Part shown: positions 11,246-64,000 of the stretch, in pieces | Layout of the letters: each line of letters starts with the position of its first letter | Numbering within the stretch: the stretch's first letter is position 1 | Assembly: GCA_965248755.1 (NCBI GenBank) | Contig: OZ252149.1 | Location: forward strand, 4,252,314 to 4,316,313 | DNA length: 64,000 nt | Direction of reading: 5' to 3' | Source of the DNA: Candidatus Latescibacterota bacterium | GTDB lineage: Bacteria; Latescibacterota; CBDEFO01 | Made by a program: the position numbers and the translations under genes | The notes under the pieces: model-generated | The model's database searches: none | The model's input: the letters and a program-made list of their open reading frames with translations, nothing else | What the model was told of the DNA's origin: nothing

Positions 11246-12605
11246 CAAGTAGCAGCATCTCTTCCCGAAAAGAAGTCAGGTTACTTTGTGTTCTTCGCGC
11301 CTTGACGCTATATCCTGTTCAACCTGGCGCGGTAGCAATGCCCACAGCGCCCGTGAGACCTGCATGACTTAGATACGTTTCGGATAACCTCAGTATAACC
11401 GAAAGCCGATCAAAAGCCTCCAGACCTGATGCGTATTGTCCTCTTTGGGCCCTGCTCCCTTTTCAAATCTGCGAGAGAACTTGTACACTTTCCCCTGAAG
11501 ATGGAGGTAAAACCTGTCACCTTCCTTGCGGCGTTTTATGTCGACTCCGATGTAATCTAATCCTTCCTCCATCCTGTCTATGCCCTCGTCTCCCGAAAAA
11601 GGCACAAGTGCCTCAGCCCTTTCACGGTCGTATTCAAAACCCACCCTAATGTCATTCCAGATCTGATAAGTCGTCCTGAAGAAAGCGTCTCTTTCTTCAT
11701 TCCTGAAGCCCTGCTCTTCTGTGCCTCTCCCGACGTGGTGTCCTACAATCCAATCCCTGTAGATATAGGGGAAGTTGCCAGCGACATCCCCGCTGTGCGC
11801 ATACCAGCCGTTCGGCGCCGAGATCCCTCTCCTCAAAAACCTACTTTCGACGACCTGAAATAGCCTTGCTAACTCTATCCTCAGATCCGCCCTTCCGTCC
11901 CTAAATAGGTCTCCAAGGTACGCACCTATCAAATAAGCACTATTGCGGCCCCAAGGTATTACCCTCCTTGCAAACCCCGGGTACCACACATCGTCTCCGG
12001 CTGTTAAACCATAGAGCTTAACGTAATCGTATAGATATACACTCCCCCCCACCTCAGCGATGGCATTGCCTCTTATATCCCCTGCTGTCTGATTAAGAAT
12101 GCTCTCTATGGGGTTCTCCTTAATGACGCCCCCGACGCTTGCTCCTACAGCGATCTTGTTTAGACCGACATTCCCCATATCACATTCATGAGGGATTGTA
12201 TTTCGATACAATCTTGTTTGTGAATGAATATTACCACTTTTACATTTTTCAACAAGTATTTTTTTCAATTAATTATAGTATTTTCCTCTGAATTATCACT
12301 TTCTTTGTGTTTAAATCCTCCAAATCGGAGACACCTCTCCATCGACTCACAAAAAAATGTGGCAGTTTAAACAGAGTAATATCGCAATCGTTCAATCCGG
12401 GATAATATTTCGGTAAATAAGCTCTTGTCTATCCCAACCTCAGCCATCTGAAACGTGATGTATCTGCTGTGCCTGACAAGCTTCGCGCCAATCTTGATCA
12501 ATGTCACGAGGAGGCTGCCAAGAGACCCCGGGATAATATCAGTGTTTGATTCTCCCTGGAAGAACCAACCGCCTTAGCCCGATTAATTCATAAACTTGCT
12601 GGAGT

Positions 12606-12628
12606 TATTGCGAGGAGCAAAGCGGTCC
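12606..12628. repeat. palindromic element copy (TCCCCGATTGAGTCTATCGGGGA)
   Basis: 7-8 bp perfect stem with 7-nt loop; member of a dispersed family (see findings). Confidence 0.8.
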
Positions 12629-12714
12629 CCGATTGAGTCTATCGGGGAAGCAATCTCAAGGTTTTATAGTGGTCTCCTATGAGAGTCGGAGAGTATTACA
12701 TCTACCACAAGTAA

Positions 12715-12738
12715 CCCCCGATTAAATCTATCGGGGGG
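12715..12738. repeat. palindromic element copy (CCCCCGATTAAATCTATCGGGGGG)
   Basis: Same stem and loop architecture, 109 bp from the previous copy in direct orientation. Confidence 0.8.
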
Positions 12739-12933
12739 ATTGCTTCGCCTTCGGCTTGCAATGACACCGAAGGTGGTTAAACGGCATAACTATAATATAA
12801 TACAATCCCTTAATTAATACACGGACTTTTTTTGTGAATTATTCGCCTCAGAAAGTTTCCAAGATTATAGGCCAGAAGAAATAACCAGAGCCTCACCTGA
12901 TCCCTTTCTGAACCCACATAGCATTGATATCTG

Positions 12934-13317
12934 TCAGGTGATATCTGACAGGCTGTTGAGATTTTCCAACTGAGTCAGTATCTCCGTTTCAAAACGTCCT
13001 ATCGTGTTGGCGCTGGCGGCGTGCTTGCCTTTGCCCTTCTTTCCGGTAATCGCTCGCATTACTGGGTCAACTGGTAAAGGATGAGCATTATTCACAGCTT
13101 CATATCCTGCAAGACGACTGTAAATCGATTGACGCATCAGTGTGGGCATATCATGTTGGATATTAAGTCCTCTTCGTAGATCGTTAAAAAGACTAGATAC
13201 TGAGTCGAATAATCCTAAAACGTCATCGAGGTCACGATACGCAAGAAGACCACCATCAGATGTCACCTTGGCACGATCAAATTCAAGCTTAATAGTTCCA
13301 TCAAATCCCATATTCAT
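12934..13317 (-). pseudogene. IS1380-family transposase, N-terminal fragment
   Basis: 127-aa ORF LEFDRAKVTSDGGLLAYRDLDDVLGL...YSRLAGYEAVNNA matches the conserved N-terminus of IS4/IS1380-type DDE transposases; the catalytic core is missing. Confidence 0.6.
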
Positions 13318-14278
13318 CCTTTCACCCTCTGGATGATCAATACTTATCCGCCATTTCCGAGTCTTATTTATTGTAATCTAACATGTTCTGGTGACTTTGA
13401 CAACCGTTTTTCGGGTCTAATATGAGGAATGGTGGTTAGATATGTCCACTGGAGCCTTGCGGTAATAAGGCTTACCTCATCTCCGGTTCGACTTTGAAGA
13501 CCGTCGATAATAGAGGTGCTCCCGGACACTGGACCCAAACTATGTTCTATCTGAATGGACCTAAGAGGAGGAGCGTTGTCTGTCAACACAAAATTTCCAT
13601 GGTAGCCCGGTCCCCACCATTGTCTGCTCTTCCCAAATAAAAAATCGGTCCTCAGAAACCTTACTTTAAGATAGACCTCGTCTAACTTTGCTACGGTTCT
13701 CTCGTCCTTTCCGAAAAGGTAAGGAGATGCAAAAAAGGCAGCATAAGGCGTAATACTTGCTCCTACATCTATTTTGGCCCCGATGCTGCCGCCCTTGGAA
13801 AAGTGATAAGGCTCAATATTATCCACATTTTTAACTGCCGCTCTGGTAGCTCCAAAGAGGGTTAACTCCCCCTTTATGTAAGGGATAAAAAGTTTTTTCC
13901 TTTTTCCCCGCTCTGCCTTTGCTATATCCTCCAATTCGAGTCGAAACTCGTGCTCAAGGTCTAAGACCCATCTTTCTACCTCCAAAGACAATGCCGGCTT
14001 ACTCTTTGACAGTCCATAAACTAAAAGAGCGGCCTCATAACGTCCGATGGGTTTGCTCTCGGACGGAGGACGCTCTAAAAGTCCCTTTGTGTTTAACCTT
14101 TCCAGGATACCGTACGCCCAGTGATGCAGGGGCAAAGCGACAGATGCTCTCCTTTCCTGGAACGGAGTCCACGTTCTACCTTGTGCCCAAACCTTACCGG
14201 CGTTAGCAGTACTGAGGTTCCCAAGCAGTATCGGAGAACTTTTTGGGGAAAAGAGGATTAGGGCAACATACGCACAAC

Positions 14279-16113
14279 TTAAGAACTTCCACTTTGATGA
14301 TTTCTGCAAAACTCCTGAAGTCCCTTCAAAAGTCCCTCTCTGTCTACCCTATCGACGTAGTCGATAATGTTTTGGATCTTCTTGTCCAGCCCATCGATCC
14401 GATTAGAAGACGTGATCCTTAGTATCTTATCGTGCACAGTAGGCTCTACCTTTTCGTCTCCGTTCCAAAGTTCTTCGTGCATCTTTTCTCCGAGCATAAG
14501 TCCTGTGAAGACTATCTGTATATCCTTGTCCACTTCCAGTCCGGAAAGATGTATCATGTCCTTTGCCAGATCCAATATTTTGATCGGGCGTCCCATGTTC
14601 AATATGAATATATCTCCCCTATTTCCTATCGCCGCTGCCTCCAATACCAACTGTGCCGCCTCTGGGATTGTCATAAAGTAGCGGGCTATATCAGGGTGAG
14701 ATACTGTAACGGGGCCTCCTTCTGCTATCTGTTTCCTGAATATAGGGATGACACTTCCGTCGCTGTCCAGGACGTTGCCGAATCTGACTGTGACAAACTT
14801 GGCCCTGCTTTGTCTGCCGAAATCCTGGATGAAGAACTCCGCCAGCTTCTTGGATACACCCATAACTCCCACCGGATTAACTGCCTTGTCTGTTGAGATA
14901 TTAACAAAGGTCTCCACACCGCCTTCCTCTGACAGCTGTGCCGCAGCTATAGTCCCAGCTAAATTGTTCTTTATGGCTTCCTCAGGGTTCAACTCCATCA
15001 AAAGCACGTGCTTATGAGCCGCAGCGTGAAAGACGATCTGTGGCTTGTGTTCGCCTATCATGGCCCTGAACTTTGCCCGGTCGTTAATATCTCCTATTAT
15101 CTGGACAATCTCCGTATCTCTTGCAATCTTTTCAAATTCAATTCCCAAAAAGTGCATATTGTTCTCAGCTTTGTCATAGAGCACAATTTTGAAGGGATTA
15201 TAAGCAGAAGTTGGCGGCATATCTCCGCACCGATAGAGCCCGCTGCTCCGGTTACTAATACAGTTTTATTTGCTATAAACGAGCGTAACTTCTTAGTATC
15301 TAAATTCACCTCCTCTCTACCTAAAAGGTCCTCAACCTTGACGTCCCTGAGTTGATTTATAGGAGATTTTCCATTTACCATCTCGGAGGATGCGGGTGCG
15401 ATCTTGAAATCGATGTTGCATTCTGAGCATATATCTACGATCTCCCTGATCTCTTGTCCACTCGCATCTGGAACCGCCATGATCACTTGCCTGATCTGTC
15501 TGCTTTGAATGATGTTTTTCATCTTCTCCACCCCGCCTAAAATCTCGATTCAGTGAATCCGCATGCCCACATTGGCGCCCGAATTGTCTATGAATCCCTC
15601 GATCTTATACTGCTCCCGATGGTTATTCTCCACCTCCCTGACGATCAGCTCTGCTGTGCTTCCTATGCCGTATATTAGGACAGGTGCGGCAGATCCTCGC
15701 GGTCTCAGCACAGACTCCAAACTCGACCGGAATCTGATAACAAATCTGCTACCCCCGATAAGCAGGATCATAGACATCCAGTCCAGCAAGAAGACACGCC
15801 TTGGGAAGTCCACCGTGCGCAGGACGTATACCAAAGCGATCAGAACTATACTCCCTATCGTAATACTCTTGCATATCTGAACTAAGTCCTCAACACTTGC
15901 ATATTTCCATAGTCTGCGATAGAGATTCGTAACTGAGAATATGCCTATCCTCACTGGGATCGCCAATACCACCATAAGCATCAGGTTATACCTCTGAGCT
16001 TCGGGGAATGAGAAGTTAGAGATCACCCCGAACGATAGGAAAACCGAAATTGCTATAGACAGCAAGTCTGCTACTATCAGGAGGATTTGGTGTCTTTTTA
16101 ATCTTATGTTCAC
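14279..16113 (-). pseudogene. capD: CapD/PglF/WbpM-type UDP-sugar 4,6-dehydratase, disrupted by two frameshifts
   Basis: Three consecutive ORFs (15550..16293, 15097..15531, 14279..15220) together encode an N-terminal membrane domain, a linker with VLVTGAAGSIGAEICRQLL NAD-binding motif, and the epimerase/dehydratase domain; frame changes near 15545 and 15100-15230. Confidence 0.7.
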
Positions 16114-18504: not shown

Positions 18505-18957
18505 CTACGTCAAAACACAAGCATTATCCACATAAAAAAATGTGGAGAGGGAGGGATGTTTGATTGGCCATGCGATCACTGGCCCGCTGCACCAGAGAGT
18601 TAAGGGTCTGTCGAGATTTTCGGCGATCTCCAAAGGTTCTGGGGCAGAGGGAATCTTGAAGAGTTGGCAATACTCCTTGAGGAGGTCCACAACAATAACA
18701 TCAAGGGCTGTCGCTAATCTTCTCAGTGTCCTAATGGAAAAACTGCTGTCGGATTTCTCCCACTTCGTGATAACAGTCCTGTGAACGCCGACCTTCACCG
18801 CTAACTGATACTGTTTCAGCCCGCGCTCCTTGCGAATGTTTCTGAGGTTTTCTCCTACCGTCAAACTTGTCTTCTTTGCTAACGTATGGCTGTTCTGACA
18901 GGATGTCGGATACGTAAATAAAAAGGTAATGCAGTAGAAAACTTGCACCTGGTACAT
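18505..18957 (-). CDS. XRE-family helix-turn-helix transcriptional regulator
   Basis: HTH segment LRNIRKERGLKQYQLAVKVGVHRTVITKWEKS; start uncertain (ORF track extends to 18993). Confidence 0.6.
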   Translation of the reverse strand: MYQVQVFYCITFLFTYPTSCQNSHTLAKKTSLTVGENLRNIRKERGLKQYQLAVKVGVHRTVITKWEKSDSSFSIRTLRRLATALDVIVVDLLKEYCQLFKIPSAPEPLEIAENLDRPLTLWCSGPVIAWPIKHPSLSTFFYVDNACVLT

Positions 18958-18991
18958 TGACAATTTGTTGATCTGTAGCGATATTTGGGAC

Positions 18992-19776
18992 ATGAAAAAT
19001 TGCCCTCGCTGCAGGGGAAGAAAATTTTGGTTACTGAAGACTGGTCAGTTACGCTGTCGGAGGTGTAAATTGACTAGAAAGTTGACCTCCTCCTCCTGGG
19101 AGAAAACTCGAATGTCTCCGTACTGGAAGGGGAGGTTGGTTGAGTATTTTTGTCTTGGTGTTCCTGTTTACCGGTTGCGATTCCATGTTCCATACACGAG
19201 GAAGACTATGGAGCGCTGGTATCGGATCATTCGAAAGGAAATCTACCACCTCACCTTCAAGGAGCTTGAACTCCTTGAAGGTGAGGTGGAAATGGACGAA
19301 ACTCTCTTTGGTGGTAGAAGGCCTGGTAAGAGGGATTGGGGTGCTTTGGGCAAACAGATGGTCTTTGGGATCTATCAGAGAAAGGGTAAGGTGTTGACGT
19401 TTCCTATCTCGTCAAGGAGTCGTGACTCACTGTTGCCTCTTATTACCCAACACATCAAACCAGGGAGCTTATATTACACTGATGATTGGATAGCCTATGC
19501 CTCCCTTTCTATCAGTGGCAACCACGTGGTAGTGCCGAAAGAGAAGGGAATAGCTAGAGGAAGAGATCACCTTAATGGCGTGGAAGGTTTCTGGTCGTAT
19601 GCCAAACACTGGCTTTACCAGCGATCCCCGATTGATTCTATCGGGGAGGTGTTGACAAAAACTCCTTCCACCTTTACCTTAAGGAGATCGAGTGGTGCTT
19701 CAACCATCGCCACGAAAATCTCCTTCCACTTATAAGAAAGCTACTCGATCAACAAGCTGTCAAAGAGCTAAATTAG
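18992..19776 (+). pseudogene. IS1595-family transposase interrupted by a palindromic element
   Basis: N-terminal zinc ribbon CPRCRG...CRRC and DDE core with HLNGVEGFWSYAKHWLYQ; the family-typical C-terminus (KNSFHLYLKEIEWCFNHRHENLLPLIRKLL) is encoded in a different frame immediately after the palindrome at 19626-19648. Confidence 0.7.
19626..19648. repeat. palindromic element copy (TCCCCGATTGATTCTATCGGGGA) inside the IS1595 transposase gene
   Basis: Same family as 12606; sits exactly at the frame break. Confidence 0.8.
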
Positions 19777-57820: not shown

Positions 57821-58019
57821 AAATAAATCCGATTACCCCATAAAGTCAAGATATATCGGGATAGATAGAAACATAGGTAATAGTGAAGTAGTAAGGAGGG
57901 AGAAAGGCAGATGCGCTGAATTCACAGAAGGTAAAAGTCTATCGGAAGATTCTTAAATTGTCAACTTTAGAGCGCGATTCATCACTGAGATTCTGTAACA
58001 GGGGAGTCGCCTCTATATC

Positions 58020-59365
58020 GGGTCTGTCAGTTTTTTTGTGTAAATGGGATTTTCTTCTGTACCCTTTTCGGCTTATTCTATACCAAATCTCCCCTCGAAG
58101 TGGATGGAGAATTGGTGAATGGCCAAGCTCCAGTTCCTGATCGGCATCGTCCATTTTTTCTTGATATTCTTGAGTGTCATATAGAGTAACTTAATCGCTG
58201 TCTCGTCGTTTGGGAAGCTATTTCTGTTCTTTATTACTTTCCGTAGAGAGTTATTAAGCGATTCGATGGCGTTTGTGGTATAGATCACCCTTCGGATCTC
58301 TTCAGAGTAGGCGAAAAACGGGATGATCCGAGACCAGTTATTCTGCCACGATTTACTTATCATCGGATAACGGCTGTCCCAAGCCTCCTGAAAATCTCCA
58401 AGGGCCTCTTCAGCCTGTTCTACCGTGGGGGCTCGGTATATATTCTTGAGGTCGGCGGCAATCTTCTTACGATCCCTATACGACACGAACTTCAAGGAAT
58501 TCCTCACCACATGGACAATACAGAGCTGGACCTCTGCTTGGGGAAATACGGATTCAATAGCCTCTGGAAGACCCTGGAGACCATCCACGCAAGCTATCAA
58601 CACATCGTTCATCCCCCGATTCTTAAGCTCCGTGAAAACTTGCAGCCAGAACTTCGCCCCCTCGCTCTTTGCAATCCAGATACCCAAAACGTCTTTCATC
58701 CCATCCAGACCGACCCCTACCGCAAGATACACCGCCTTGTTTACGATCCGGCCTTCGTCTCTAATCTTCATCACCAGAGAATCAAAGAATACTATGGGAT
58801 ACACCCCTTCCAAAGGACGATCCTGCCACTGCTTCACCTCTGATATGATCCCATCGGTCACAGTCGATATCAAATCAGGGGCACCTCTACACCGTATATC
58901 TCCTCCAAATGAGCCTGTATATCACGTGTGGTCATCCCTCGGGCATACATAGACAGTATCTTATCATCAAAACCTGTAAATCGCCTCTGCCCCTTCCTCA
59001 CTATCTGCGGATCAAACTGACTGTTCCGATCCCGTGGCACCGATATCTCCAGATCACCATAATCTGTCTTCAATCCCTTTGTGCTCCTACCGTTGCGCGA
59101 ATTACCGCTGTTCCTCCCTTCTGGAGAACTCTTATCGTAGCCTAACTCATACGTAAGCTCTGACTCCAGAGCCCGCTCAAGAATCGCCTTCGTCAACTGC
59201 TTCAAAAGACCTTCCTAACCAATTATGTCTTCCGGCTTCTTGTAATCCTTCAAAAGCTCATCAATCAACTTCGGGTCTAGCTTGTCCATGTAAGAACTCC
59301 TTATGTAAATGGTGGACAACTAATATAACTCATTTCCCCATTTACACAAATTTCCTTACACACCC
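58020..59365 (-). mobile_element. IS256-family insertion sequence, copy 1 (inactivated), flanked by 8-bp TSD TCTATATC
   Basis: Termini GGGTCTGTCAGTTTTTTTGTGTAAATGGG / CCCCATTTACACAAATTTCCTTACACACCC form imperfect IRs; identical 8-mers at 58012-58019 and 59366-59373. Confidence 0.85.
58073..59319 (-). pseudogene. IS256-family transposase, inactivated (1-nt deletion plus nonsense codon)
   Basis: Split into ORFs 58073..58873 and 58870..59205; relative to copy 2 lacks one A near 58878 and has GAG to TAG near 59203; also a Q to R substitution. Confidence 0.85.
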
Positions 59366-59366
59366 T

Positions 59367-60374
59367 CTATATCTCCCCTTCAATCTCCTTTCTCATTAAA
59401 GAGCAGAAACTGATCGCCCTCTTCAGACATCCCTCAGCCTTCTTTTGATCTACCTTGTTCTCTTTCTCAAGCATGTCCCTCTTTTGGGGCAACCATACAT
59501 TTTCCAGATAGTCCATCTGCTCGTTCAGATTCGGGTCGTCCGCGCAGCTTATGAAGTAGTCGATGATCCCCAACAGTCCAAATTTCAAGCTTACAGAATA
59601 TGATTTCGTCTCCTCATCCAAATCTAGGCAGATGTTTTTGCTTCTGTTCTGCCGTGCCGTTGCCAGTTTCCCGGCAGAAACGGTCAAAAGTGTATTTACA
59701 AAACTGTCCTTGTTCTGTACCCAGTCCGCCAGCCCCTCTACGTAGTCCAGAAGGTCCACCTTTTCGCCTCTAGAGATAACCGAGTAGGCTCGTATCTGCA
59801 CGTTTCTGAAGAACGCCACGAGTCCAATGTTGGCGTCTATAGTGTCAGCATCGTACAGTATCCTCTTCTCCAGGGAGGAATATTCTCTCTCCACATCGCT
59901 TGGGCTTAATCTACTGGACTTGAGGTGGCCTACGATAATATCTGCTATCTTCTGACAGAACGTTTCGGGGAAATTCCTCATCCTTAATATCTCTTCTGAG
60001 ATGAAAGCACCAGATACATTATGTATTTCTCCGAACAGATTGTACTTCTCGTATAGTTGAGTTACAATATTGTTTCCTGTGGGCAGCAGAGAATCGTTCA
60101 GCCAGAAACCATGCTCATTTAGAAGCCTGTTTCCGTTTTCATCCATGCTAACAGGACCGTCGTATCTTTTTGTAATATCGTGGAGCGTAGCTGCATATTT
60201 CAACTGATCTATGTCTCCACCTTCATCTTCACCCAAGGATACGCTCAGGTTCCTTACTCTCATCGTATGATTGAAGTAATAGTGTCTCCACAAAAAGCCC
60301 ACCCGCTTTTCGTCCCACAGATTGAAAGTGGACCCTACAAGATCTTCTAACTCCTTCAATCTATTGTCTTCCAT
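59367..60374 (-). CDS. HD-domain phosphohydrolase-like protein
   Basis: 335 aa; H...HD motif region HYYFNHTMRV...AATLHDITK and later LYDADTIDANIG; stop codon lies inside the right TSD of IS256 copy 1. Confidence 0.65.
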   Translation of the reverse strand: MEDNRLKELEDLVGSTFNLWDEKRVGFLWRHYYFNHTMRVRNLSVSLGEDEGGDIDQLKYAATLHDITKRYDGPVSMDENGNRLLNEHGFWLNDSLLPTGNNIVTQLYEKYNLFGEIHNVSGAFISEEILRMRNFPETFCQKIADIIVGHLKSSRLSPSDVEREYSSLEKRILYDADTIDANIGLVAFFRNVQIRAYSVISRGEKVDLLDYVEGLADWVQNKDSFVNTLLTVSAGKLATARQNRSKNICLDLDEETKSYSVSLKFGLLGIIDYFISCADDPNLNEQMDYLENVWLPQKRDMLEKENKVDQKKAEGCLKRAISFCSLMRKEIEGEI

Positions 60375-60860
60375 TCTTTTCTCCTGAAAGTATAGAACAA
60401 AGAGTCTAAAGTTGCCTTTCTTCTCCCCGTTTCAAAAGATATTCCTGAATATACGGAAAAGTTCCCAAGGCTGCAACAAGGGTTTCCCGCATCTAGAAGA
60501 ATAAAGATACATGGTATCCACCCACACGGGACGCTCTTGCCTGTTGGGCGTAATCAGATGTTGACTGTGGAAGGTTACCTCTTGCCGTGAGAAGATCTCC
60601 AACAAGATGGTGCGGATGGGCTTCTTGGCGTTAGACCACTATGGAGTGGATCATCCCATGGATAGGGTCAGGTAGTTCCTATTGAGCCATCGCACACCAA
60701 ACAGAGATATTCGAAGGCTTTGCCCTGGAATTTCCTGTCACCACCTATGTCTAAGACCAAAGGAGTATTCCACTTGGCTGTTTTCCTCAGTTTTGCGCGA
60801 GGGACTTGACAAGATCTCACAAATTTGCTATCTTTACAACGATTAGGGGTAAGATCTTGC

Positions 60861-60938
60861 GCGCCCATGGCTCAATTTGGATAGAGCATCTGACTACGGA
60901 TCAGAAGGTTGGGGGTTCGAGTCCCTCTGGGCGTGCCA
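60861..60938 (+). tRNA. tRNA-Arg (anticodon ACG)
   Basis: Cloverleaf folded by hand: acceptor GCGCCCA/TGGGCGT, D-stem GCTC/GAGC, anticodon stem TCTGA/TCAGA with loop CTACGGA, T-stem GGGGG/CCCTC with loop TTCGAGT, discriminator G, encoded CCA. Confidence 0.8.
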
Positions 60939-60943
60939 GAAAA

Positions 60944-60981
60944 AACAACGGGTTACGACAATTAGATCGTAGCCCGTTGTT
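60944..60981 (+). terminator. stem-loop downstream of tRNA-Arg
   Basis: AACAACGGG ... CCCGTTGTT 9-bp stem. Confidence 0.4.
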
Positions 60982-60985
60982 CGTT

Positions 60986-61022
60986 TGGTGACATATTGGT
61001 GACAGAAAGCGGGCTGGTGACA
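60986..61022. repeat. three direct TGGTGACA repeats
   Basis: Copies at 60986, 60997 and 61015, immediately downstream of the tRNA. Confidence 0.6.
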
Positions 61023-61534
61023 GCTGAAAAGAGCCTGGTAACTCTTCTATGTACACGTCAGTAACAAATCATAATATTGACGGAATCTATTCCATAGCGG
61101 CTTCGGAGGAAAAAAGGCAGTTGATGCAAATACACATCAACGAACTCATCTGGACGTTCGCTGAAGTGAAGCCACGTTGAGCCACCACCTTCAGCGTGGC
61201 TCAACATAGGTACTCCGCAGAGCGGAGCTTCAAACCCCATGCTTGGGTGCTATCCCCTACACCCCCCGAGATTGCATTCATTCGCACTTACGCGCGATGG
61301 TATTCTGTCATAACTTTTGGTTCTTCTCCAAAAAGTGTAGTTATTGACGGAAGTAGTTTTTTGAGAATTTAATATTGAAAGGCATCTGTCTGTTCCTGTA
61401 TAGTTTATAGTAGTAAGAACAAACAAATACAGGAGGGGGACAGGATGCCTAGTGACATGAGAGCATAATGGCTTAACCTGCCGAAAGTAAGAGTTAATCG
61501 CGTAACGATCCATAGTGACAGCACCGAAATTTAT

Positions 61535-61819
61535 GTGGATCGAGATGCTCTCTTCGACTTTACTTGCTCTGGCTGTGGCCAGACATCCTTCTGGAGTTGG
61601 GATTGTCGGCAATTCAGGATTAGGGATCTGTCAGTTTTTGAATTTAAGGCCTACCTGATCATAGATAAATATCGCACCAATTGTCCAATCTGCGGGGTGA
61701 AGATTGAAGGACTTGACTTTGTTGATTCTTATTACCGATGCACTGCCGAACAATGGATTAAGGTAGGCAAATATGCTCTGAACTGGGTCCGGCTATCATG
61801 CCAGCGTCCCCGATTGTGA
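61535..61819 (+). pseudogene. ISL3-family transposase, N-terminal fragment
   Basis: CSGCG...RIRDLSVFEFKAYLIIDKYRTNCPICG matches the zf-ISL3 N-terminal pattern; ORF stops at the palindromic element. Confidence 0.5.
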
Positions 61820-61852
61820 TCCCCTATTGAATCTATAGGGGAGCGGGGATCA
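61807..61852. repeat. compound palindromic element (TCCCCGATTG + TGATCCCCTATTGAATCTATAGGGGAGCGGGGATCA)
   Basis: Contains the family loop TGAATCT in a nested hairpin; sits between the ISL3 and IS1380 fragments. Confidence 0.7.
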
Positions 61853-61853
61853 G

Positions 61854-62096
61854 GTGAGGCTCTGGTTATTTGTTCTGGCCAATAATCTTGGAAACTTTCT
61901 GAGGCGGTTGGTTCTTCCAGGGATAATCAAATACCGCTCTCTTGGCAGCCTCCTTGTGAAATTGATCAAGATTGGCGCGCAGATTGTCAGGCACAGCAGA
62001 TACATCACGTTTCAGATGGTTGAGGTTGGGATAGACATGAGGTTATTTGCCGAAATATTATCCCGGATTGAACGATTGCGATGTTACTCTGTTTAG
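61854..62096 (+). pseudogene. IS1380-family transposase, C-terminal fragment
   Basis: LANNLGNFLRRLVLPGIIKYRSLGSLLVKLIKIGAQIVRHSRYITFQMVEV matches the conserved C-terminus; near-identical DNA to 12368-12560 on the opposite strand. Confidence 0.6.
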
Positions 62097-62263
62097 AAGC
62101 CTTGTGAAATAGTTATCTTGTAGGCAGCGTCTGAAACGTCTATTATGGGTCAAACAGTAGCATATCGTATCGTTTTGCTATGGAATAAGCAAAATAGTCT
62201 CATCAGAGTTCTGGTCAGCAAGGAATAGAAGCTGTTTGAAGAACAGGATGCACTGTCTTTGAA

Positions 62264-63610
62264 GGGTCTGTCAGTTTTTTTGTGTAAATGGGATTTTCTT
62301 CTGTACCCTTTTCGGCTTATTCTATACCAAATCTCCCCTCGAAGTGGATGGAGAATTGGTGAATGGCCAAGCTCCAGTTCCTGATCGGCATCGTCCATTT
62401 TTTCTTGATATTCTTGAGTGTCATATAGAGTAACTTAATCGCTGTCTCGTCGTTTGGGAAGCTATTTCTGTTCTTTATTACTTTCCGTAGAGAGTTATTA
62501 AGCGATTCGATGGCGTTTGTGGTATAGATCACCCTTCGGATCTCTTCAGAGTAGGCGAAAAACGGGATGATCCGAGACCAGTTATTCTGCCACGATTTAC
62601 TTATCATCGGATAACGGCTGTCCCAAGCCTCCTGAAAATCTCCAAGGGCCTCTTCAGCCTGTTCTACCGTGGGGGCTCGGTATATATTCTTGAGGTCGGC
62701 GGCAATCTTCTTACGATCCCTATACGACACGAACTTCAAGGAATTCCTCACCACATGGACAATACAGAGCTGGACCTCTGCTTGGGGAAATACGGATTCA
62801 ATAGCCTCTGGAAGACCCTGGAGACCATCCACGCAAGCTATCAACACATCGTTCATCCCCTGATTCTTAAGCTCCGTGAAAACTTGCAGCCAGAACTTCG
62901 CCCCCTCGCTCTTTGCAATCCAGATACCCAAAACGTCTTTCATCCCATCCAGACCGACCCCTACCGCAAGATACACCGCCTTGTTTACGATCCGGCCTTC
63001 GTCTCTAATCTTCATCACCAGAGAATCAAAGAATACTATGGGATACACCCCTTCCAAAGGACGATCCTGCCACTGCTTCACCTCTGATATGATCCCATCG
63101 GTCACAGTCGATATCAAATCAGGGGACACCTCTACACCGTATATCTCCTCCAAATGAGCCTGTATATCACGTGTGGTCATCCCTCGGGCATACATAGACA
63201 GTATCTTATCATCAAAACCTGTAAATCGCCTCTGCCCCTTCCTCACTATCTGCGGATCAAACTGACTGTTCCGATCCCGTGGCACCGATATCTCCAGATC
63301 ACCATAATCTGTCTTCAATCCCTTTGTGCTCCTACCGTTGCGCGAATTACCGCTGTTCCTCCCTTCTGGAGAACTCTTATCGTAGCCTAACTCATACGTA
63401 AGCTCTGACTCCAGAGCCCGCTCAAGAATCGCCTTCGTCAACTGCTTCAAAAGACCTTCCTCACCAATTATGTCTTCCGGCTTCTTGTAGTCCTTCAAAA
63501 GCTCATCAATCAACTTCGGGTCTAGCTTGTCCATGTAAGAACTCCTTATGTAAATGGTGGCCAACTAATATAACTCATTTCCCCATTTACACAAATTTCC
63601 TTACACACCC
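62264..63610 (-). mobile_element. IS256-family insertion sequence, copy 2 (intact transposase), no TSD
   Basis: Same termini as copy 1; flanks TCTTTGAA and ACGAAATC differ. Confidence 0.85.
62317..63564 (-). CDS. IS256-family (mutator-type) transposase
   Basis: 415 aa uninterrupted; typical IS256 sequence features. Confidence 0.9.
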   Translation of the reverse strand: MATIYIRSSYMDKLDPKLIDELLKDYKKPEDIIGEEGLLKQLTKAILERALESELTYELGYDKSSPEGRNSGNSRNGRSTKGLKTDYGDLEISVPRDRNSQFDPQIVRKGQRRFTGFDDKILSMYARGMTTRDIQAHLEEIYGVEVSPDLISTVTDGIISEVKQWQDRPLEGVYPIVFFDSLVMKIRDEGRIVNKAVYLAVGVGLDGMKDVLGIWIAKSEGAKFWLQVFTELKNQGMNDVLIACVDGLQGLPEAIESVFPQAEVQLCIVHVVRNSLKFVSYRDRKKIAADLKNIYRAPTVEQAEEALGDFQEAWDSRYPMISKSWQNNWSRIIPFFAYSEEIRRVIYTTNAIESLNNSLRKVIKNRNSFPNDETAIKLLYMTLKNIKKKWTMPIRNWSLAIHQFSIHFEGRFGIE

Positions 63611-63625
63611 ACGAAATCGGACGGG

Positions 63626-64000
63626 TTAAGCAAGTTTTTTGCAATTTTGTGCTTCATACTGTGCCTCGAATTCTCCAGGCGTCAGATAACCAAGTGCTGA
63701 GTGGATACGCTGATCATTGTAAACCACATCCAGAAAGTGACTCAAATGCACCAAAGCGTCCTCAAAATGCACGTATTCTTGCTGCCATACTTCCTCATCC
63801 TTCAGATGACCAATCGCGCTTTCTACAAACGGGTTCTCCCAAGCTTTGGCCTCAGATGCCATGCTTATCTCGGCACTTACTTCCCCAAGCATCTTACGGT
63901 AGCCAGCCGCCGTGTATTGAGACCCCCGATCCGAATGGTGTATCTCCGGTCGGTGTCCTTTCTTGAATGCTTTGGAAAGTGCTTCTTGGGGCAAGGCACA
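63626..64000 (-). CDS. IS3-family transposase (integrase core), 3' part; continues beyond window edge
   Basis: HHSDRGSQYTAAGY...HSALGYLTPGEFE; rve-type integrase core; N-terminus lies beyond 64000. Confidence 0.7.
   Translation of the reverse strand, partial: CALPQEALSKAFKKGHRPEIHHSDRGSQYTAAGYRKMLGEVSAEISMASEAKAWENPFVESAIGHLKDEEVWQQEYVHFEDALVHLSHFLDVVYNDQRIHSALGYLTPGEFEAQYEAQNCKKLA

Follow-up and report, generated by a model that had tools for sequence, protein, structure and literature searches.

Layered mobile-element remnants downstream of a tRNA-Arg gene, next to a resident HD-domain gene, in a Latescibacterota genome

The locus and its counterparts in two relatives

The window analyzed here is a 64,000-nucleotide stretch of a Candidatus Latescibacterota contig, near the end of which a tRNA-Arg(ACG) gene and an HD-domain gene lie among pieces of several insertion sequence (IS) families (Table 1). 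Every element listed for this locus by a sequence-only reading was recovered at or near the place assigned to it, including the first IS256 copy, which is indeed present and decayed, although it starts at 58020 rather than at 57939. An additional IS1182/IS5-type piece was absent from that list.

The locus was compared with two relatives (L001 and L006, the latter labelled Latescibacterota) at ~97% DNA identity. Positions 59364-62095 of the window are collinear with both at 96% identity, and the HD gene, the tRNA-Arg gene, the TGGTGACA repeats, the ISL3 fragment, the palindrome and the IS1380 fragment are common to all three genomes; no relative was found that lacks this old layer or that lacks all IS material. 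The notion of a zone of repeated mobile-element traffic is borne out by the occurrence of six IS families within 6 kb and by differences among the three genomes in IS content and position, the term 'hotspot' being relative to the two or more IS remnants noticed elsewhere in the window.

Table 1. Features at the tRNA-Arg locus (window coordinates; '.', no strand assigned)
Feature	Coordinates	Strand	Basis or remark
Target-site duplication TCTATATC, left, of IS256 copy 1	58012..58019	.	sequence
IS256-family copy 1, 1346 bp	58020..59365	-	Transposase_mut matches; 29-nt terminal inverted repeats; alignment to copy 2
Target-site duplication TCTATATC, right, of IS256 copy 1	59366..59373	.	spans HD stop and last codon
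HD-domain phosphohydrolase gene, 335 aa	59367..60374	-	Pfam HD PF01966, E = 4e-10
Sigma-70-like promoter match (TTGACA, 17 nt, TATCTT), 5' of tRNA	60806..60834	+	consensus scan alone
tRNA-Arg(ACG) gene, CCA encoded	60861..60938	+	ARAGORN; Rfam RF00005, 63.7 bits
Terminator-like hairpin, 15-bp stem, directly 3' of tRNA	60944..60981	+	inverted repeat, 93% complementary; fold
Three direct TGGTGACA repeats (starts 60986, 60997, 61015)	60986..61022	+	putative integrase arm-type sites
Hairpin-rich non-coding remnant	61023..61315	.	fold z-scores
ISL3-family fragment	61316..61747 (end approximate)	+	PF14690 (Zn_ribbon_ISL3), NF033550
REP-like hairpin, CCCTATTGAATCTATAGGG core, at ISL3/IS1380 junction	61820..61843 (palindrome 61822-61840)	.	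pattern scan
IS1380-family C-terminal fragment, final ~80 codons	61843..62095	+	DDE_Tnp_1_4 positions 358-434/435; NF033539
IS1182/IS5-type 3' terminus, cut by IS256 copy 2	62096..62263	-	94% identity to full-length element of L001/L006
IS256-family copy 2, 1347 bp, intact 415-aa transposase	62264..63610	-	PF00872, E = 3e-127; NF033543; inverted repeats
IS3-family 3' part, orfB C-terminus	63611..64000	-	rve_3, rve, rve_2; NF033516 positions 262-369/369

The HD gene

The HD gene lies on the 5' side of tRNA-Arg, outside the scar. Its protein has 261 detected homologues and belongs to a family that is conserved in Poribacteria and Chloroflexota and is widespread in ordinary metabolic neighbourhoods. 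The dN/dS ratio of the gene is ~0.3, similar to that of the neighbouring genes, and the sequences indicate that it is under purifying selection. Profile searches matched HD hydrolases of known structure (PDB 2pq7, 3b57 and 5dqv), and the folds closest to an AlphaFold2 model of the protein (pLDDT 92.6) are YpgQ and 2pq7; as modelled, it resembles the fold of YpgQ, a nucleotide hydrolase, with a helical C-terminal extension added to this phosphohydrolase fold.

The sequence-only reading had proposed that this protein might be mobile-element cargo, which was not borne out, and had suggested a comparison with defence-associated HD families. The protein matched no defence family above noise, and both the HD, tRNA-Arg and the HD, TPR, ExbD, TonB gene orders are kept in L001 and L006, where the IS256 copies are lacking and the HD gene directly adjoins the TPR/ExbD/TonB genes. 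That reading had also pointed to IS-free relatives as the place to look for the HD-tRNA order; the order is indeed conserved without IS256, but neither relative is free of all IS. Given the position of the gene 5' of the tRNA, its gene order kept in the absence of IS256, the mismatch between the outer flanks of the IS256 pair (see below), its dN/dS, its widespread family and the lack of a defence match, HD is an ordinary resident gene, not cargo, and a chance neighbour of the IS zone.

The two IS256 copies

Both IS256 copies are private to this genome, being absent at this locus from L001 and L006; they are 99.4% identical (five differences) and are in the same orientation. Copy 1 inserted cleanly, a single base beyond the stop codon of the HD gene, and is flanked by the 8-bp direct repeat TCTATATC; the corresponding empty site in both relatives has a single TCTATATC, with the HD gene directly beside the TPR gene. 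A 1-nt deletion and a TAG nonsense codon split its transposase into ORFs of 266 and 111 aa. Copy 2, as previously noted, encodes an intact transposase; it lacks a target-site duplication, its flanks being dissimilar (TCTTTGAA versus ACGAAATC).

Because this nearly identical, similarly oriented pair encloses the HD gene, the tRNA gene and the scar, and because the intact copy 2 transposase could act on the outer ends, one might view the whole (58020-63610) as a Tn4001-like composite transposon carrying HD and tRNA-Arg as cargo. This is extremely improbable: the pair is bordered by unlike sequences (TCTATATC to the left and ACGAAATC to the right), copy 1 is itself framed by a perfect 8-bp duplication, and the entire interior occurs at the same locus, with the same neighbours, in two relatives without IS256 there.

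The right-hand end of copy 2 abuts an IS3 element whose orfB stop codon (63626-63628) is, as had been read from the sequence, 15 bp from the IS256 end and whose orfB runs off the end of the window. The gene order shared with L001 and L006 ends exactly at the left end of copy 2, and the hydantoinase genes of those relatives are absent from the window. This break and the missing duplication would both be expected if the junction were a chimeric assembly join, the true genome continuing, like those of the relatives, with the remainder of the IS1182/IS5-type element and the hydantoinase genes, and this genome, like L006, is apparently metagenome-assembled. Such an artefact is nevertheless unlikely, inasmuch as the contig spans two repeat copies while keeping five copy-specific differences (more typical of long-read assembly), as IS-mediated recombination that leaves hybrid flanks is common, and as the sequence itself gives no misjoin signal. 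We infer instead that copy 2 underwent recombination with a further IS256 copy located within or next to an IS3, which would explain both the absent duplication and the gene-order break; an assembly join through the 1.35-kb repeat would look alike.

Older and mobile IS remnants

The ISL3 fragment retains the left inverted repeat and the N-terminal zinc-ribbon part of the transposase, but has lost the start codon and the DDE domain. From its inverted repeat on, it is 75% identical in DNA to an ISL3 element in L217, at the opposite end of which its 17-nt repeat is matched in reverse; the limits given for the fragment come from this comparison. The adjoining IS1380 fragment is homologous to a decayed IS1380 copy at 12.2-13.3 kb of the window and extends ~215 bp further in L001 and L006. 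The REP-like hairpin between them is a dispersed repeat, with nine pattern matches at six sites in the window against 0.11 matches expected.

What remains of the IS1182/IS5-type element are its final 37 codons and a terminal repeat ending in TTTCACAAGGCTT. The full-length element in L001 and L006 matches DUF772, DDE_Tnp_1 and DDE_Tnp_1_6 and, best among NCBIfam models, IS1182. It occupies three sites in the three genomes, with authentic termini at each: this element is mobile and still moving.

It might be supposed that one or more of these IS specifically target tRNA genes or adjacent hairpins, given that the cluster starts ~380 bp past the tRNA in a hairpin-rich stretch and that REP-like hairpins occur within several IS remnants or border them. 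Yet none of the insertion points reaches the tRNA; no common target links the three IS1182/IS5-type sites, the site of IS256 copy 1 and the IS1380 copy at 12 kb (within a Wzi-like gene); and the other IS remnants of the window are not near tRNAs. Targeting of this kind is thus very unlikely.

The region 3' of tRNA-Arg

The tRNA-Arg sequence is identical in L001 and L006, and the promoter match upstream of it is kept in both. Downstream, a structured inverted-repeat region proposed from sequence was confirmed by fold z-scores over 60939-61350 of -5.3 (plus strand) and -4.1 (minus strand); this region has no Rfam match. Its hairpin-rich remnant contains hairpins at 61120-61141 (terminator-like, minus strand), 61176-61205 and 61213-61227, and yielded no Pfam match in six frames; no DNA resembling it was found in the rest of the window or among the viral loci considered below.

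Five copies of TGGTGACA occur in the whole window against 1.5 expected, three of them within 37 bp just past the tRNA, where L001 and L006 conserve the array as three copies of GGTGACA; an inverted copy at 60736, which the relatives do not share, is probably due to chance. The same triplet was found in 18 viral contigs, as compared with 0 and 4 for shuffled 7-mers. In provirus L205, a tRNA-Lys gene is followed by a hairpin and then by three repeats at offsets 0, 11 and 29, identical to those in the window. In L211 and the L198 podovirus group, a reversed tRNA 3' fragment is bracketed by arrays, whose orientation relative to that fragment is opposite to the window's; a tyrosine integrase gene begins ~60 bp after the second array cluster in L211 and lies 0.7-1.4 kb from the first array in the L198 group.

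By analogy with these loci, the triplet most likely represents leftover integrase arm sites, and, because it matches arrays flanking tRNA-derived attP cores, one older integrase-type event at tRNA-Arg is likely, as judged from one short array and its viral counterparts. The earlier association of this scar with tRNA genes as classic integration sites is thereby retained for the triplet, but not for the IS, which are DDE transposons showing no sign of targeting the tRNA. A search for an att-like repeat, that is, for a second copy of the tRNA 3' end or an attR, found none. Likewise, six-frame translation of 60939-61480 showed no integrase remnant, and three integrases used as tblastn queries found no match in the window or in the relatives.

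Alternatively, the triplet may consist of P4- or plasmid-like replication iterons or of a host-regulator operator belonging to a lost downstream gene, a reading that is possible but rather doubtful. In L195, L196, L197/L208, L207 and L210, arrays do occur at or just after the 3' end of primase/helicase genes (with D5_N and DUF5906 domains in L195 and L207, and VapE and PriCT_2 in L197; those of L196 and L210 were recognized by eye alone), extra copies of the motif in inverted orientation occur near those viral arrays, and neither integrase nor attR survives at the window locus. The closest layouts are, however, att-like: L205 shares the tRNA-hairpin-array arrangement with identical offsets, and the arrays of L211 and the L198 group flank a tRNA fragment. 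Moreover, the array is absent 3' of all 109 other tRNA-Arg loci examined, which argues against a tRNA-linked operator, and a replication-iteron remnant would be mobile-element debris in any case.

A probable layered landing zone

The stretch downstream of tRNA-Arg is probably a non-essential landing zone with layered mobile DNA, next to which HD is a resident gene. In the oldest layer, a tyrosine-recombinase element probably integrated at the 3' end of tRNA-Arg, in which case the terminator hairpin, the three TGGTGACA sites (for an integrase arm-binding domain) and ~300 bp of hairpin-rich DNA would be its relics, any integrase gene or far att site being now gone. Both relatives carry this old layer, so that its origin as foreign DNA is presumptive. 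Before the sampled strains diverged, as their shared fragments indicate, copies of ISL3 and IS1380 arrived and became truncated, the REP-like hairpin now marking their junction. Since that divergence, the IS1182/IS5-type element has moved, being at a different site in each genome, and, in this genome alone, IS256 inserted twice. Copy 1 landed past the HD stop codon, duplicating 8 bp and leaving HD intact, and later lost its own reading frame; copy 2 inserted into the IS1182/IS5-type transposase gene, with the presumed recombination following. IS would accumulate here because insertion into dead mobile DNA costs nothing, rather than through any aiming at the tRNA, and the pile-up of broken and intact jumping genes is, as such, ordinary.

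Comparison with known systems

The HD protein conserves the metal-binding residues of Bacillus subtilis YpgQ and of the stand-alone HD hydrolases (PDB 5dqv, 2pq7, 3b57 and 3djb) that are its best sequence-profile and fold matches, though at just ~14-20% identity; these structures lack its beta-hairpin insertion (residues ~72-95) and the ~130 aa of helical sequence that extend its C-terminus. The IS256 elements share with their family (e.g., the IS256 of Tn4001) a Mutator-type DDE transposase of ~400 aa (PF00872, NF033543), a length of ~1.35 kb and imperfect terminal inverted repeats of ~29 nt, and copy 1, though not copy 2, the 8-bp target duplication; they differ in that a frameshift and a nonsense codon make copy 1 a pseudo-element and in that the pair forms no transposed composite.

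The attP of phage lambda contains three tandem P' arm-type integrase sites. The putative arm sites in the window are similar in that they consist of three short sequences, repeated directly at intervals of about one helical turn, near a core (the tRNA 3' end), and their motif also flanks tRNA-derived cores in the integrase-encoding viral contigs (L211 and the L198 group); TGGTGACA is, however, unrelated to the lambda arm sequence, and the cognate integrase is missing at this locus. As a whole, the locus is like nested IS clusters ('IS graveyards') and decayed tRNA genomic islands in having truncated IS of multiple families, nested or side by side, in non-coding DNA beside a tRNA gene, with a content that varies among close strains. 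It differs from them in being without an integrase, flanking direct repeats of the tRNA end and cargo genes, and in that its old layer, rather than being variable, is fixed in all three available genomes.

Layers of insertion around tRNA-Arg

The segment running from the HD-domain gene to the IS1380 fragment is an old one: the HD gene, the tRNA gene, the TGGTGACA direct repeats, an ISL3 fragment, a palindrome and the IS1380 fragment all occur in two close relatives, and this layer thus predates the split of the three genomes. One relative (L001) is a 25-kb metagenome contig encoding the closest homologue of the HD protein (96% identity); the other (L006), obtained by a genome scan, is a 462-kb MAG contig (CBDEFO010000003.1). 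Between 49.3 kb and 62095 the window aligns collinearly with both (about 96-97% identical in DNA), IS256 copy 1 being the one exception; hydantoinase and dehydrogenase genes follow the IS1182/IS5-type element in the relatives and are missing from the window. Comparing the locus across relatives, as the sequence-only reading had suggested, defines the insertion of copy 1 but not that of the old layer, which is present in three of three genomes and hence shows no presence/absence variation. L006 carries the label Candidatus Latescibacterota, yet among the named close homologues of the HD protein (45-52% identity) almost all are assigned to Candidatus Poribacteria; the classification of this lineage may need checking.

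ORF listing, Pfam and NCBIfam confirmed each of the elements named in the sequence-only reading, which had placed the start of copy 1 at 57939 (actually 58020) and had left out the IS1182/IS5-type 3' end.

Features of the tRNA-Arg locus, in window coordinates
Feature	Coordinates	Strand	Remarks
IS256 copy 1	58020-59365	transposase (-)	1346 bp; Pfam, NCBIfam, ORF listing
HD-domain gene	59367-60374	(-)	between copy 1 and tRNA-Arg
tRNA-Arg(ACG)	60861-60938	(+)	
TGGTGACA array	60986, 60997, 61015		three direct repeats
ISL3 fragment	61316 to ~61747		left inverted repeat at 61316; limits from alignment with L217, an ISL3 element
IS1182/IS5-type 3' end	62096-62263		168 bp between IS1380 fragment and copy 2; comparison with relatives
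IS256 copy 2	62264-63610	transposase (-)	1347 bp; intact 415-aa Mutator-type transposase
IS3 orfB C-terminus			right of copy 2; stop codon 15 bp from IS256 end

Both IS256 copies combine a Mutator-type DDE transposase with imperfect terminal inverted repeats (29-30-nt arms, 79-80% complementary) and a length within the ~1.3-1.5 kb of that family, and they are 99.4% identical to each other. The copy 2 transposase matches PF00872 with E = 2.9e-127 over profile positions 14-377 of 379 and NF033543 with 421 bits (cutoff 150); in copy 1, whose gene is split by a 1-nt deletion and a TAG codon, the IS256-type profile matches are split in two. Copy 1 is flanked by a perfect 8-bp target-site duplication, TCTATATC. 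Because both relatives lack this copy and have one TCTATATC only at the empty site, copy 1 is a simple, recent insertion with an 8-bp duplication. Its insertion point lies one base past the HD stop codon, which the duplicated octamer restores, so that the HD gene was left unharmed.

Copy 2 interrupts the IS1182/IS5-type transposase gene. Inspection of its flanks for an 8-9-bp target-site duplication revealed none: the flanks, TCTTTGAA and ACGAAATC, are unrelated, the right one being the truncated IS3 end. The simplest reading of this junction is homologous recombination between copy 2 and a further IS256 element located elsewhere; alternatively, the assembly may have been joined across the repeat. 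Copy 2 thus marks a gene-order break or a possible misassembly, which is relevant to any user of the contig. A Tn4001-like composite transposon was considered and rejected: the outer IS256 flanks are unlike, so the 5.6-kb unit has not moved as such a transposon, and its interior is in place in relatives without IS256.

The remaining elements are remnants. What is left of ISL3 is one inverted repeat, the left one, plus the zinc-ribbon region (PF14690), and this remnant scores 32 bits against NF033550 (cutoff 180); it is an N-terminal fragment of an element that, when intact, has a zinc ribbon, DDE_Tnp_ISL3 and two inverted repeats. The IS1380 C-terminal remnant covers only positions 358-434 of 435 of DDE_Tnp_1_4 and is likewise a fragment, the full transposase being absent. 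Of the IS1182/IS5-type element the window keeps just the last 168 bp; the domain scores are those of the L006 element. Full-length elements are found in both relatives (transposase ~450-470 aa, with DUF772, DDE_Tnp_1 and DDE_Tnp_1_6); that of L006 scores 261 bits against NF033551 (IS1182), just below the cutoff of 270, and 151 bits against NF033581 (IS5; cutoff 140).

The place and orientation of the IS1182/IS5-type element differ between L001, where it lies beyond a 604-bp segment, and L006, where its position is between this segment and the end of IS1380; its remnant in the window directly adjoins 62095, within the IS1380 3' region. An authentic terminus is present at each of the three sites; the arrangement in the window may have arisen by a third insertion or, starting from an arrangement like that of L001, by deletion of 784 adjacent bp. 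The element is ~1.53 kb long, with ends AAAGCCTTGTGAAA...TTTCACAAGGCTTT. In the comparison of L001 (5975-8099) with L006 (5973-8099), the two copies lie on opposite sides of the 604-bp segment in opposite orientation, within shared blocks of ~98.5-99.7% identity; neither site has a clear target duplication, and the uncertainty of the junctions is at most 1 nt. As regards IS families in this poorly known lineage, IS256 and the IS1182/IS5-type are active, and ISL3 and IS1380 are dead.

The palindrome is a member of a dispersed hairpin repeat, CCCGATTGAnTCTATCGGG, whose pattern is matched 9 times in the window, at 6 sites, where 0.11 matches are expected. The sites (12628, 12717, 19627, 24078, 34079 and 61822) are ~21-23 nt long, with consensus TCCCCGATTGAnTCTATCGGGGA; at least four of them fall within an IS remnant or at its margin, suggesting a repeat that is mobile in its own right or a preferred target. 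Two of them lie within a decayed IS1380 at 12153-13340, which has cut a Wzi-like gene for capsule assembly into two pieces (the ORFs on either side, 11390-12268 and 13368-14309, are on the minus strand). This IS1380 retains its N-terminal 127 codons and the C-terminal part; ~730 bp are missing from the middle, and the deletion ends at the IS1380 position where the fragment at 61843 starts. It also contains a 266-bp insert (12578-12843) with no counterpart in the 61.8-kb copy or in the transposase profile; the two REP-like hairpins (12628, 12717) lie in this insert, within longer inverted repeats, and the insert may be a MITE-like element. Another hairpin, at 19627-19645, seems to be inserted in the frame of an IS1595 (ISXO2-like) transposase gene (18965-19735, plus strand), which takes a conserved C-terminal motif out of the reading frame; next to that gene, at 18505-18993, is an HTH (Cro/C1-type) gene.

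Divergence from the relatives is uneven. The non-coding spacer between the HD and tRNA genes (60291-60790) is ~9% diverged from both, the average being ~3%; the IS debris 3' of the tRNA is just 2-3% diverged, and elsewhere the values per 250-bp bin run from 0.4% up to 10% or more. Constraint on the debris was rejected as an explanation of its low divergence, since values from 0.4% to 10% per 250 bp occur over the whole shared region; the unevenness probably reflects recombination patches.

The HD gene is a resident

The sequence-only reading had allowed that the HD protein might be cargo, and had proposed profiling it against defence-associated HD families. It is not cargo: the gene lies 5' of the tRNA and not within the scar, and relatives that lack IS256 have it at the same position, directly beside TPR, ExbD, TonB, ExbD and ExbB genes. 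Its dN/dS against the relatives is ~0.3 (neighbours 0.1-0.6). The family has at least 261 members, with full-length homologues in Poribacteria (45-52% identity) and in Chloroflexota (32-45%), and homologue neighbourhoods are metabolic (truA, HD, PhyH in several Poribacteria contigs; UbiA, HD in another); none of 46 other loci has tRNA-Arg nearby. Look-ups of the exact HD, ExbD and IS256 transposase proteins of the window gave no recorded match.

A defence-associated HD nuclease was likewise rejected, given these metabolic neighbours and the lack of a significant defence-profile match. The best PADLOC match is Cas3-HD, below threshold (E = 0.0012, 17 bits); across 22 family members Cas3-HD reaches E = 1e-5, confined to the generic HD motif, and the NCBIfam cas3_HD score is 17 bits (cutoff 43). 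The metal-site residues H36, H65-D66, H118, H150 and D177 are invariant in 22 homologues, and the family profile matches the structural-genomics HD hydrolases 2pq7 (E = 2.6e-10), 3b57 and 5dqv. With an AlphaFold model (pLDDT 92.6) as the query, the top Foldseek matches are B. subtilis YpgQ and 2pq7 (target-normalised TM 0.65-0.80); the protein thus has both the H...HD...D metal site and the HD helical fold of YpgQ-like phosphohydrolases. We read it as a resident, predicted YpgQ-like phosphohydrolase with a lineage-specific helical extension. In annotation, the gene should not be labelled island cargo or a defence gene.

A repeat array resembling integrase arm sites

The tRNA-Arg gene has a promoter-like match (TTGACA, 17 nt, TATCTT) and is followed by a hairpin with a 15-bp stem and by three direct copies of TGGTGACA within 37 bp, a triplet that is not due to chance. 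The GGTGACA core of all three copies is kept in L001 and L006, both of which carry the array; an inverted copy upstream of the tRNA, at 60736, is not conserved in them. The array is not a general feature of this tRNA: a metagenome scan with a 40-nt tRNA core retrieved at least 120 loci, all of them from unrelated, mostly GC-rich taxa with other acceptor stems and none from an intermediate relative, and the array was missing downstream of tRNA-Arg at all 109 metagenomic loci sharing the core.

Viral contigs scanned for GGTGACA, N4, GGTGACA, N8-14, GGTGACA gave 18 contigs in ~11-12 distinct groups (by our own grouping), as against 0 and 4 for two composition-matched shuffled motifs in the same scan. 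One of these, the provirus contig L205, ends at a tRNA-Lys in exactly the layout and spacing of the window: tRNA, terminator hairpin and three copies of CTGGTGACAG at offsets 0, 11 and 29. In the viral contig L211 a reversed tRNA 3' fragment has one triplet to one side and, to the other, two further copies and an inverted one, directly followed by a gene for a tyrosine integrase with an Arm-DNA-binding domain. In a group of T7-like podovirus contigs (L198), an integrase gene lies 0.7-1.4 kb before a first triplet; next come the reversed 3' part of a tRNA-Leu, another triplet at a distance of 250 bp, and the RNA polymerase gene. L211 and the L198 group show the standard attP arrangement, a core derived from a tRNA between arm sites; the orientation of the array relative to the tRNA differs between these and the type shared by L205 and the window.

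By analogy with these contigs, the window's array is, with moderate confidence, the putative surviving arm of an old integration at tRNA-Arg. Other marks of an integrase-borne island or prophage were looked for. The window, L001 and L006 yielded no integrase by tblastn with three integrases as queries, and no presence/absence variation accompanies the array. A search for an att-like repeat of the tRNA 3' end (attR), as proposed in the sequence-only reading, found none in the window or in the 9.4 kb downstream in the relatives, at thresholds of 14 nt exact, 16-18 nt with one mismatch, or 20-24 nt with two mismatches.

Alternatively, the window's array may be made up of replication iterons: other viral contigs carry the motif beside primase/helicase genes and with inverted copies, and there it may act as an iteron. 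In five such contigs or groups (L195, L196, L197/L208, L207 and L210), (T)GGTGACA arrays with inverted copies lie at or after the 3' end of large primase/helicase genes, which encode D5_N and DUF5906 (L195, L207), VapE and PriCT_2 (L197) or, as judged by eye, toprim-type primases (L196, L210). The P4 alpha protein binds iterons, and the primase-side arrays resemble that arrangement; by this analogy they may represent a second use of the same motif.

The hairpin-rich stretch 3' of the tRNA folds far better than shuffled sequences (z = -5.3 and -4.1). Rfam, at the gathering threshold and at E <= 5, assigned a family to the tRNA only; six-frame translation of 60939-61480 gave no Pfam domain, integrase included; the hairpin at 61176-61205, used as a pattern, had 0 matches in viral contigs; and similarity searches with the 377-bp remnant returned nothing beyond the array itself. 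An 11-nt repeat, TATTGACGGAA (61074 and 61344), was rejected as a MITE duplication, its second copy lying within the ISL3 fragment. The minus strand has a terminator-like hairpin at 61120-61141, with TGCCTTTTTT after it, that points at the tRNA. It may once have ended a leftward gene that is now lost, for instance one for an integrase; no coding remnant was detected.

An arm-site-like motif with fixed spacing is found repeatedly at attachment sites derived from tRNAs, in viral contigs that are unrelated to one another. This is of modest wider interest: the triplet could help to find att sites and the traces of old integrations in genomes of uncultured organisms. It occurs in marine T7-like podoviruses, in GC-rich P4-type elements, in the tRNA-Lys provirus and in this Latescibacterota/Poribacteria-like chromosome; a literature text search for TGGTGACA or GGTGACA returned primer lists only. 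A bolder and improbable proposal is that TGGTGACA, N3, TGGTGACA, N10-13, TGGTGACA is the shared arm-site 'code' of one tRNA-targeting tyrosine integrase lineage and that the tRNA-Arg array is possibly a still-usable half-site. If so, the half-site would let related elements re-enter or recombine at tRNA-Arg, helping to explain the repeated traffic.

Origin of the pile-up

The description of the locus as a hotspot is supported. Support for a link to the tRNA comes from the arm-site analogy alone. No IS has inserted into the tRNA itself, no target sequence is common to the insertion points, and other IS remnants are far from any tRNA (IS1380 at 12.2-13.3 kb, IS1595 at 19 kb). An ordinary explanation, neutral accumulation, fits the pile-up: within dead mobile DNA, later insertions and IS-mediated deletions would be neutral, and hence would persist and nest. 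By comparison with known systems, the locus, involving neither a new mechanism nor cargo, is a nest of IS elements of the usual kind, on what is probably a decayed integration site, in which what is new consists only of copies of known IS families (IS256, ISL3, IS1380, IS1182/IS5-type and IS3).
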